A stretch of 64,000 bases of DNA from Candidatus Altimarinota bacterium (GTDB lineage Bacteria; Patescibacteriota; Gracilibacteria; UBA1369; 2-02-FULL-48-14): assembly GCA_015485665.1 (NCBI GenBank), contig WFTC01000019.1:83-64082 (forward strand), read 5' to 3'. Of this stretch, positions 2 through 2,092 are shown in pieces; within the stretch, counting starts at the first letter, position 1; each line of letters begins with the position of its first letter. A program made the translations under genes and the position numbers. The notes beneath the pieces were generated by a model. The model was not told the origin of the DNA, searched no databases, and saw only the letters and a list, made by a program, of their open reading frames with translations.

Positions 2-895
2 GAATTATCCCCAGAAAATGCAGAACGACTAAGCACGCTCAACGGCCTACTGGCATTAGAAGAAAGCGAAGAAAATGCTCAGGTAATGAATGCAGAACTA
101 AGGGGTAGAAAAACTTGGGCAGAAAAAAGTGCAGCGCTTCGTGAAATGAAGGATAGAATTCAAAGAGCAATTCAAAGAGCAATTCAAAGAGCAATTCAAA
201 GAGCAATTCAAAGAGCAATTCAAAGAGCAATTCAAAGAGCAATTCTTCCCGCTGATGCTACCGCCGTCACTGCTTTGGAGTTAAGTACAAGTAAAGCTGT
301 ATCTGAAGCTGCTCAAGCTGAATTATCCCCAGAACATCAAAGAATTTTAGAGCTGCTTCTTGGTGAACGATATCAAGAAGGTCTTTATGCAGGTCGTTAC
401 ACCGCAGAAGAAGCTCCTAAGGCTAAAGTAGAAGCATGGCTAATGGCAGACACTACCCGTTTGGACGCAGCTGCTAAATGGGAAGCTCGCGGAGGAAAGC
501 CTATGTTTGTCGGAGAATTTGAAGGCGAATGGTGGCTAGCGGAATGTTCCGAAGAAGTTCCACCAGATATTCGAAACATTTGTTACGGACCTAATGGTGC
601 AAAACAGCAAGGCCTTTCAGAAGATAGAAATGCCTTAAGTCAGGCAGAAAATCTTGGAGGAAAATTGTTGCCCAAAGGGCTTGGAGATCGATTGGATGCA
701 GCAGGTTTGATCAAAAACCCTAATTCATGGGAATGGCGCATGCACCCTAATAACAGAGATTTAGAAATCGAAGGTTACTTTAAAGATGATGGTATAGCTT
801 GGTTTGCGGGCTATGGCAATGTGTTTTGGGGTGATCCGCTCCTTCACACTGATACTGGTGGGCTGCGCTGCTCGCTAAGTGGTTCAAAACTTTAA
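2..895 (+). CDS. DGR target protein, 5'-partial (reading frame open from the window start), with a C-terminal variable region
   Basis: The frame is open from nt 2 and the listed ORF is 86..895. The C-terminus GIAWFAGYGNVFWGDPLLHTDTGGLRCSL resembles C-type-lectin/DUF1566-like DGR variable-region ends. An 88-nt copy lies 300 nt downstream. The motif ELSPE occurs at nt 2 and again at nt 320. Confidence 0.7.
   Translation, partial: ELSPENAERLSTLNGLLALEESEENAQVMNAELRGRKTWAEKSAALREMKDRIQRAIQRAIQRAIQRAIQRAIQRAIQRAILPADATAVTALELSTSKAVSEAAQAELSPEHQRILELLLGERYQEGLYAGRYTAEEAPKAKVEAWLMADTTRLDAAAKWEARGGKPMFVGEFEGEWWLAECSEEVPPDIRNICYGPNGAKQQGLSEDRNALSQAENLGGKLLPKGLGDRLDAAGLIKNPNSWEWRMHPNNRDLEIEGYFKDDGIAWFAGYGNVFWGDPLLHTDTGGLRCSLSGSKL
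157..245 (+). repeat. Perfect 12-bp tandem repeat AATTCAAAGAGC x7 plus a partial unit, in frame, encoding (IQRA)7
   Basis: Read directly from the sequence. Units start at 157, 169, 181, 193, 205, 217 and 229. Confidence 0.95.
791..878 (+). repeat. DGR variable region (VR) at the 3' end of the target gene
   Basis: It aligns without gaps to 1174..1261. The last 22 nt (GGTGGGCTGCGCTGCTCGCTAA) are identical in both copies, as an IMH-like segment would be. Mismatches cluster in the first 66 nt. Confidence 0.65.
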
Positions 896-935
896 TCCTT
901 GGACCTTTTTCTTCTTTTTTCTTTATCTTTCCCAG

Positions 936-951
936 CCCCGCGTTAGCGGGG
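936..951 (+). terminator. GC hairpin CCCCGC-GTTA-GCGGGG followed by ATTTCGTTTT; target-gene terminator and/or a VR-flanking hairpin
   Basis: A 6-bp GC stem with a 4-nt loop and a T-rich tail, 41 nt after the stop codon and 58 nt after the VR end. Confidence 0.45.
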
Positions 952-1173
952 ATTTCGTTTTGCACTCCAAGCGAGTATCATCTGCACATACGGTGAATAG
1001 TCACTTGCCTCGGTGTAAGCTACCGTAAAGTGCTCCTGCATCCAGGAAGGAGCATGACAAAGTAAAAACCACTTAGGTTTGAGTGAGATTCAGCCCTTCA
1101 TTGAGGCTGAAAAATAGTACCTCGTCGTTGCGACGACGGAAGAATATGGATGAATCTCATCAACAACAGCGCA

Positions 1174-1261
1174 GGTATGGCTTGGAATGCAGGCTATGGC
1201 AATGTGTATCATGATTATGCGATCCGTCGCACTCGTAGTGGTGGGCTGCGCTGCTCGCTAA
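1174..1261 (+). repeat. DGR template-repeat-like copy (TR)
   Basis: This is an 88-nt homolog of the VR. It is not embedded in a credible gene, since ORF 1150..1431 is mostly antisense to avd. Read in the VR frame it gives AWNAGYGNVYHDYAIRRTRSGGLRCSL. Confidence 0.6.
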
Positions 1262-1265
1262 AGGG

Positions 1266-1610
1266 TTACGTACTTTGGACCGATTTAAGCCAACCTCCGA
1301 GCATTCTTCCAATCTCGGAGGTTTTGGCTTGTAGTTGGAATACTAAAGTAGGGTTGACCAGCTTCAGTTCAAGAAGCAAACGACATTTCAATGTAATAAG
1401 CTCGAGAGTCGCACTGGCTTTAAGCAGATAACCTGCTTTCATCGGTTTCGGCGCATTTTTTGCCATGAGCAGTTGCTCAAGCATATCAAGTATCGAGTTT
1501 TCCAAAGAGAGTCCCAAGCCATACTTCCAACGCTTTGAAAGACCTTGGTTTGTCTCTATTATGACTTTGAAAAGCTCATAACTTTTATTGATGATGGGAA
1601 GTGAGGACAT
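1266..1610 (-). CDS. avd: Four-helix-bundle protein, Avd-like (DGR accessory variability determinant family)
   Basis: It carries the pattern IINKSYELFKVI...KYGLGLSLENSILDMLEQLL...EIGRMLGGWLKS, typical of Avd and 23S-IVS four-helix-bundle proteins. I placed the start at internal Met23 of ORF 1266..1676. Confidence 0.7.
   Translation of the reverse strand: MSSLPIINKSYELFKVIIETNQGLSKRWKYGLGLSLENSILDMLEQLLMAKNAPKPMKAGYLLKASATLELITLKCRLLLELKLVNPTLVFQLQAKTSEIGRMLGGWLKSVQST
1289..1328 (+). other. Extended hairpin 28 nt downstream of the TR (13-bp stem with a 2-nt bulge, 12-nt loop)
   Basis: GCCAACCTCCGAG (1289-1301) pairs with CTCGGAGGTTTTGGC (1314-1328). The hairpin lies inside the avd coding sequence on the opposite strand. 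Confidence 0.5.
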
Positions 1611-1983
1611 AGATTTTGGGTTAGGAAGTATATGGAAGGCGTGGTTTGAATTTCGTAAAGGAAAGAGGATGAGCATGGCAATGCACGAATTTCAGTACAA
1701 CCTTGAGGCAAACCTCATGGAGCTGCATCAAGACCTTGTGAATGGCACTTATAAGCACGGTGGTCCGTACAGGTCTTTTGTGGTCTGCGACAACAAACGG
1801 AGAGAGATTTCGGTTTCCTCGGTAAGAGATCGGGTGGTCCACTGCCTCCTCTACGACTACCTTGTCCCGATCTGGGATAAGACCTTCATTTACGACGCTT
1901 GGTCTTGCAGGAAAGGCAAAGGGGGGGGTTACAGGTTCAATAAAAATTCGCATGTGCCTACTACCTATGTATGTGGGTCATAG
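1588..1983 (+). pseudogene. DGR-type reverse transcriptase, N-terminal fragment only (truncated)
   Basis: WKAWFEFRKGKR...YKHGGPYRSFVVCDNKRREISVSSVRDRVVHCLLYDYLVPIWDKTFIYDAWSCRKGKG matches the RT N-terminal motifs (RDRVV, CRKGKG). No catalytic YxDD region follows. Similarity ends at a G8 run (1921-1928), and the ORF stops 20 nt before tRNA-Ser. Confidence 0.75.
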
Positions 1984-2002
1984 GGTTGTGTTGCGCACGT
2001 GA

Positions 2003-2092
2003 TGGCGGAGAGGGAGGGATTCGAACCCTCGAGACCCTTGCGAGTCTACCCGCTTTCCAAGCGAGCGCACTAGACCACTATGCGACCTCTCC
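2003..2092 (-). tRNA. tRNA-Ser (anticodon GGA), long variable arm, CCA encoded
   Basis: Reverse complement: GGAGAGGTCGCATAGTGGTCTAGTGCGCTCGCTTGGAAAGCGGGTAGACTCGCAAGGGTCTCGAGGGTTCGAATCCCTCCCTCTCCGCCA. Cloverleaf folded by hand. Confidence 0.9.

Follow-up and report, generated by a model that had tools for sequence, protein, structure and literature searches.

In a normal DGR, reverse transcription of the template repeat (TR) RNA puts in random bases opposite A, and the VR is overwritten by the resulting cDNA; the TR itself does not change. Models of these elements take the template repeat as an invariant master copy. The direction of transfer is set by the IMH together with a downstream hairpin at the VR, the TR being distinguished only by its IMH* and by the absence of the repeat (PMC3240598, PMC5703328, PMC5758913). 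Architecture B3 accounts for 90% of the DGRs of the CPR, according to the text of Wu et al. (2018, PMC5758913). Differences other than A-to-N affect 23% of DGRs and reach 11 in a single target; they are frequent in the CPR and have been ascribed to RT infidelity or integration errors (PMC5758913). In the survey of Roux et al. (2021), the adenine bias fell below 75% in only 7 clusters (PMC8144416).

Here we describe a locus that is almost certainly a decayed member of this known system, a dead DGR of the CPR/Patescibacteria type, in which the copy standing in the place of the TR has lost adenines in an adenine-biased manner. It lies in the 64,000-nucleotide stretch of DNA analysed in this work (the window, C19:83-64082), whose start is 82 nt from the end of contig C19. 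The assembly comprises 860 kb in 23 contigs, is rated 100% complete and has a genome GC content of 37%; the host is a tiny genome of the Peribacteria type. The features of the locus, in window coordinates, are as follows.

2 to 895, plus strand: 3′ part of the DGR target gene (DUF4256-like), an open reading frame whose 5′ end is lost at the contig start
791 to 878, plus strand: VR, the final ~30 codons of the target; 856-878 is the invariant GC-rich block, or IMH start, common with the TR
936 to 951, plus strand: GC-rich hairpin CCCCGC-GTTA-GCGGGG, 3′ of the VR, read from the sequence
990 to 1163, plus strand: conserved and structured leader in the target-to-TR interval, from homology and predicted fold
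1174 to 1261, plus strand: repeat copy in the TR slot, adenine-depleted and with a VR-like core, with homologous flanks and the junction CTAAAGG
1269 to 1610, minus strand: intact avd, antisense to TR and RT, from profile matches
1289 to 1328, plus strand: long hairpin within the avd coding region, 28 nt past the TR, from predicted fold
1588 to 1922, plus strand: RT remnant of the N-terminal ~112 residues with the catalytic motifs deleted, from homology to the RTs of relatives
1921 to 2002, plus strand: G8 run and ~75 nt of unrelated filler, standing in for ~650 nt of RT
2003 to 2092, minus strand: tRNA-Ser(GGA), conserved on the right-hand side of the cassette

The cassette runs in the order target-VR, hairpin, leader, TR slot, antisense avd, RT and tRNA-Ser, and its leader-TR-antisense avd-RT order is collinear with loci L005-L008 and L010 of related genomes, which are labelled Candidatus Peribacteria MAGs in the genome collection. 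TR, avd and RT follow the order and orientation typical of the CPR, and the locus matches architecture B3 as described in the text of Wu et al. (2018, PMC5758913). A direct repeat of 88-103 nt is present at 791 and 1174, the VR copy ending an open reading frame and the TR copy being non-coding. After the common 23-nt block the VR continues as ...CTAAGTGG and the TR as ...CTAAAGGG, a distinction that is kept in the related genomes G022 and G021; judged from the bases, these are the IMH and IMH* junctions, and the predicted GC-rich inverted repeat follows the VR only. An Avd homologue is encoded by a 114-aa minus-strand open reading frame, which matches Pfam bAvd with E=1e-9, under the curated cut-off, and NCBIfam DivGenRetAVD with E=7e-16 and 58.5 bits, below the cut-off of 80.

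The cassette has no intact RT catalytic domain. The first ~112 residues of its RT are 89-92% identical to residues 1-112 of the 323-aa RTs of relatives, and in the alignment the homology to the RTs of L006 and L005 ends at 1921. In L006, from the same genus, a further ~650 nt of RT precede the same tRNA-Ser; the window has in their place a G8 run and ~75 nt of filler, directly after which the tRNA-Ser lies. No second match to the filler was found, either in the genome or among the loci compared. Searches of the genome with PF00078, with the RT fragment and by tblastn with a full-length RT of a relative found no other RT. As the reading frames of avd and of the RT stub remain open, the inactivation of the RT was probably recent. 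Poly-G runs lie exactly at the points of RT disruption in two independent genomes, G8 at the deletion junction here (1921-1928) and G9 at the RT frameshift or insertion in L005 (G008:C10; ~2035-2046).

A 46-nt block of the leader (990-1035) is conserved in the order, with 87-93% identity between DGR cassettes of many genera and families. Folding of 960-1345 gives a z-score of -3.6, and an Rfam search of the leader returned no matching family; judging from this conservation, the block probably has a function within the DGR RNA of the clade. The stretch 1264-1342, which is the 3′ end of avd and includes the 13-bp hairpin that follows the TR, has a DNA identity of 88-90% to cassettes of other families (G056, G004). 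This exceeds the identity of the surrounding coding sequence and suggests that the stretch also acts as an RNA element on the TR strand. The same stem as that of the VR hairpin, with other loops, lies 3′ of the VR in L110 and L112, and the hairpin at 936-951 would, from its sequence, be either a target-recognition or a terminator hairpin.

The target itself, which has the homologues P0001-P0004, is related to DUF4256. The Pfam profile scores 25.9 bits on the target open reading frame (cut-off 27), and PF14066 is present in target homologues of 55-68% identity. An AF2 model of the target has a mean pLDDT of 75, with confidence over the N-terminal ~130 residues and values below 50 in the VR segment; a Foldseek search of this model, weak in the VR segment, gave nothing with E<0.5 against the PDB. 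No mention of DUF4256 was found in the literature searched. Inside the target gene near the contig start, window positions 157-245 hold a perfect 12-nt x 7 tandem repeat, AATTCAAAGAGC, which encodes IQRA repeats and may have caused the contig break.

Aligned without gaps, the VR (791-878) and the downstream copy (1174-1261) differ at 17 positions, every one in the first 66 nt, which reproduces the count of the original prediction. Recounts of its other figures agree as well: in terms of the base in the downstream copy, 7 mismatches fall at A and 10 at non-A (six G, two C, two T), half of the copy's adenines are substituted (7/14), and 14 of the 17 mismatches hit codon positions 1 or 2 in the VR frame. 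Its identical block at the 3′ end exists and, at 23 nt (856-878), is one nucleotide longer than the 22 nt given. Global alignment with two sets of gap penalties returned the same ungapped alignment, so no corrected alignment restores adenine specificity. The repeat pair has E=4e-18 within the genome, far beyond chance, and a blastn-short search of the genome found these two copies only. With only 41% of the TR/VR mismatches at TR adenines, the pair lacks the adenine restriction of a DGR.

The downstream copy is a TR by position. Its leader flank upstream and its avd flank downstream are both homologous to the flanks of the canonical TR in G022:C60, with 78-82% identity, and its 3′ junction, CTAAAGG, is of the TR type, VRs having CTAAG(G/T)GG. 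By content, the copy resembles a VR. The orthologous TRs of G022:C60 and G021:C2, which belong to two other genera and serve DUF4256-type targets, are canonical and nearly identical to each other, reading ...TGG AAY GCS GGY TAT GGC AAT GTK AAT CAG AAC AAT GCS AAC AAT CAC AAT nnn AAT GG...; the matching codons of the copy in the window are TAT CAT GAT TAT GCG ATC CGT CGC ACT CGT AGT. In G021 all VR/TR differences inside the repeat are at A, and in G022 all but one, a T>C at a third codon position.

Against the sites on which both orthologous TRs agree, the TR-slot copy is changed at 9 of 23 A sites and at 4 of 46 other sites (Fisher p=0.004; binomial p=0.009). The nine lost adenines, in a genome of 37% GC, are replaced by T (three times), G (four) and C (two), and are confined to the 3′ half of the copy (0/5 versus 9/16, p=0.04), as expected for homing tracts initiated at the 3′ end. 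The polarity of these changes is based on the two orthologous TRs together with more distant TR modules: 11 distinct related TRs across the class carry AAC AAT CAC AAT GAT AAT, with 9-10 adenines per 21 nt, so the ancestral A-rich state does not depend on two TRs alone. The same block of 21 nt holds 3 adenines in the TR-slot copy and 3-6 in VRs.

These counts bear on the suggestion that both copies are VR-type sequences diversified from a TR elsewhere. The downstream copy is indeed VR-like (3 adenines against 9-10 in the 11 related TRs); however, both of its flanks place it in the TR slot, and the assembly holds no third copy. The third, A-rich copy for which the original prediction recommended a search, and a further RT, were sought across the genome assembly, and neither turned up. 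Pattern scans of metagenome, genome and viral contigs for a closer relative with an intact cassette gave the two known Peribacteria loci and chance matches. L080, L085 and L087, considered as TR candidates, have a TR-like 3′ end and were set aside, having no repeat partner. The idea that the IMH* of the window is more IMH-like than those of relatives was rejected, as 4/10 positions match in the window and in G022 alike.

The TR module GCN AAC AAT CAC AAT GAT AAT GG occurs in L007, L008, L011, L032, L056, L065, L115, L118, L119 and L124, and is common to DGRs across the class with differing downstream IMH blocks and targets. Its distribution among these sequences points to modular reuse or to strong conservation of the 3′ half of the template.

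Read against the two orthologous TRs, the 17 mismatches fall into the following classes, given with VR coordinates where sites are named.

A in both orthologous TRs and still A in the TR slot: 6 sites
A in both orthologous TRs, retained by the VR and changed in the TR slot: 1 site (846)
A in both orthologous TRs, with both copies changed to different bases: 3 sites (833, 843, 855)
Conserved non-A, changed in the VR: 2 sites (827, 836)
Conserved non-A, changed in the TR slot: 1 site (829)
Not polarisable: 4 sites (796, 808, 851, 852)

Ten of the 17 are thus at sites that are A in both orthologous TRs, three are at conserved non-A sites and four are not polarisable. Five more ancestral A sites (824, 830, 840, 842, 849) carry the same non-A base in VR and TR slot and are therefore invisible in a pairwise comparison. 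The VR of the closest target homologue (L110) has another base at four of these five, which suggests that the shared changes are lineage-specific. Set against the conserved TR of the orthologues, the VR is altered at 14/23 A sites and 5/46 other sites. Where an ancestral adenine has changed in both copies, 5 of the 8 sites carry an identical base, compared with one-third expected (p~0.09). This excess hints at stepwise erosion, in which the TR was partly eroded, the VR rewritten from it and the TR eroded again; otherwise, the identical outcomes would call for lineage-specific differences in the TR. The 3-5 non-A mismatches (796, 827, 829, 836 and possibly 851) need a second cause, either point mutation or RT error.

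Related cassettes serve as controls. In 16 of them, 85-100% of the mismatches lie at TR adenines, and these A-restricted controls include cassettes whose RT is frameshifted (L005, at the G9 run), broken (L011, L012) or cut to 29 residues (L023). No RT remains in the genomes of G022 and G021, where avd too is lost through a deletion directly after the TR, and their TRs are still A-rich. As the controls with damaged or missing RTs have remained A-rich, RT loss followed by drift does not by itself give the pattern in the window. RTs nearly identical to this one over the retained part are ordinary adenine mutators.

Decay has proceeded in parallel within the lineage of DGRs that target DUF4256, in L108 (G022:C60), L026/L106 (G021:C2), L110/L111, L019 (G024:C68) and L027 (G005). 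In G022 and G021 the deletion directly after the TR took the RT along with avd; in L110 the TR-avd-RT block is wholly deleted, so that the VR hairpin now adjoins the final ~15 RT codons; G024 has an internal RT deletion, and orphan VRs are left in G024 and G005. Comparable deletions of the cassette are common in independent assemblies.

On balance, we lean towards a reading in which the element itself mutagenised the adenines of its TR. An older A-rich template would have given rise to both present copies, VR and TR being two of its independently mutagenised descendants. At least once, mutagenised cDNA derived from the TR would have gone back into the DNA of the TR and not into the VR, a self-homing that may have occurred more than once, interleaved with normal homing. 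Copies mutagenised independently would by now disagree at positions that were once A and at which the TR no longer has one. The VR would not have been rewritten after the TR changed, as some of its mismatches to the present TR are at non-A sites. A later deletion of ~650 nt that removed the RT catalytic domain would then have frozen both copies. Adenines were lost from the TR slot and the RT was deleted; that the RT made the loss through cDNA integration, and that the events came in this order, is what we infer from the two copies and their relatives.

Four other accounts have to be weighed against self-mutagenesis. In neutral decay, TR and VR would have gathered point mutations after the loss of the RT, and the A bias would be a coincidence or a result of relaxed selection on AAY codons. 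The original prediction had likewise proposed an inactive element with drifting copies, and inactivity is borne out, the RT having ~112 residues left and the genome holding no other; this favours decay, as do the 3-5 non-A mismatches, which resemble ordinary substitutions. Drift, however, fits poorly, because the changes in the TR slot cluster on ancestral adenines (p=0.004-0.009) and because the RT-less G022 and G021 keep canonical TRs, and the broken-RT cassettes L005, L011, L012 and L023 A-rich ones. The lost adenines have given way to T, G and C, whereas drift in an AT-rich genome should gain A, not lose it; the 23-nt block at the 3′ end has no mismatch, and only one (796) of the four mismatches in the first 34 nt (796, 803, 804, 808) is at a non-A of the downstream copy. 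With avd and the RT stub still open, and inactivation hence recent, we consider neutral decay unlikely. An RT of relaxed specificity, mutagenising at G, C and T too, has in its favour the survey counts of non-A-to-N differences, which are frequent in the CPR and were taken to suggest lower fidelity (Wu et al. 2018, PMC5758913). Atypical RT specificity, also raised in the original prediction, is not supported: RTs that are 80-92% identical over the retained region belong to cassettes in which 85-100% of mismatches lie at A, and most of the seemingly non-A mismatches here coincide with an A of the orthologous TRs; clusters with weak adenine bias are, moreover, as few as seven (Roux et al. 2021, PMC8144416). 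Since 16 related DGRs, RT-less remnants included, keep A-restricted mismatches, both drift and an atypical RT explain the locus poorly, and we hold the latter to be extremely improbable.

A recombinational overwrite, by which a VR allele from another cell, or in two intragenomic steps, was gene-converted into the TR without cDNA, has more to be said for it: the core of the TR-slot copy is indistinguishable from a VR allele, identical VR/TR blocks of 16 and 23 nt flank this variable core, and sequence alone cannot separate import of a foreign VR allele from self-homing of cDNA. Yet these flanking identities are very short for a RecA-type exchange, and the tract would have to be ~50 nt, since bases peculiar to the TR persist at 1179, 1186-1187 and 1191; we find the overwrite doubtful, with a small but real chance of being right. 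Its simplest form, an intragenomic VR-to-TR conversion, is rejected on logic, since it predicts identical copies, or later differences at the remaining TR adenines only, and cannot leave 10 non-A mismatches. Finally, in a metagenome bin with many VR alleles, assembly could have threaded a VR variant into the TR position or created the RT deletion, or both. The 23-contig assembly, the position of the cassette 82 nt from a contig end and the G8 run at the RT junction are in keeping with such an artefact, but a switch needs shared k-mers on both sides, where the upstream shared block is just 16 nt; TR-specific bases are kept on both sides of the core, and similar deletions recur in independently assembled cassettes. 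An artefact is in our view very unlikely.

Self-mutagenesis of the TR may be framed more generally, as a DGR that corrupts its own template: IMH* protection would be leaky in this clade, each occasional write into the TR would irreversibly remove adenines in the manner of a ratchet, and the element would lose its value and decay. We give this broader picture about an even chance. The IMH and IMH* junctions in the clade differ by very few bases. Work by Doulatov and colleagues in 2004 reportedly found that the TR of phage BPP-1 becomes variable when its IMH* is replaced by the IMH. A search of the literature for self-mutagenesis or erosion of the TR found no explicit report. If the picture is true, wear of the template by its own mutagenesis would be a built-in failure mode that limits the lifespan of DGRs, and would be relevant to engineered DGR mutagenesis systems, which need a stable template. 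If it is general, many of the non-A-to-N differences in surveys, especially those in the CPR, would be footprints of template erosion and not of low RT fidelity. For the host genome the practical consequences are small: it carries a dead cassette and a target whose C terminus is frozen.

Among known systems, the locus stands closest to the DGRs of CPR/Patescibacteria (architecture B, subtype B3, PMC5758913; DGR clade 2, PMC8144416), with which it shares the order of target-VR, TR, avd and RT, an Avd homologue, a VR that ends the target gene and a GC-rich hairpin after the VR; at the N terminus, its RT has 80-92% identity with the full-length RTs found in Peribacteria relatives. It differs from them in that the catalytic two-thirds of the RT are deleted, the TR is adenine-depleted and 41% of mismatches lie at TR adenines. 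Unlike the CPR DGRs compared (Wu et al. 2018; Roux et al. 2021), its target is DUF4256-like, and the model of it, weak in the VR segment, gave no PDB match that would show a C-type-lectin (or Ig) fold. The sister Peribacteria remnants (G022:C60, G021:C2, L110) likewise have an orthologous DUF4256-like target, a VR, the hairpin, the leader and a lost RT, but such TRs as they have are still A-rich and the mismatches in the VR fall at A, with the single T>C exception in G022; L110 further differs from the window in the deletion of its whole TR-avd-RT block, with the hairpin fused to the 3′ end of the RT. With the DGR of Bordetella phage BPP-1 (mtd-avd-TR-brt), the mechanistic prototype, the locus shares adenine mutagenesis from TR to VR, an AAY-rich ancestral template, an invariant GC-rich block with an IMH-like 3′ junction, and a hairpin downstream of the VR that with the IMH sets the direction of transfer (PMC3240598, PMC5703328). 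In contrast to BPP-1, avd is antisense here, and a conserved leader lies upstream of the TR instead of a TR-RT spacer. Above all, whereas the TR of BPP-1 is protected by IMH* and by the absence of the hairpin, the TR in the window appears to have been a recipient.
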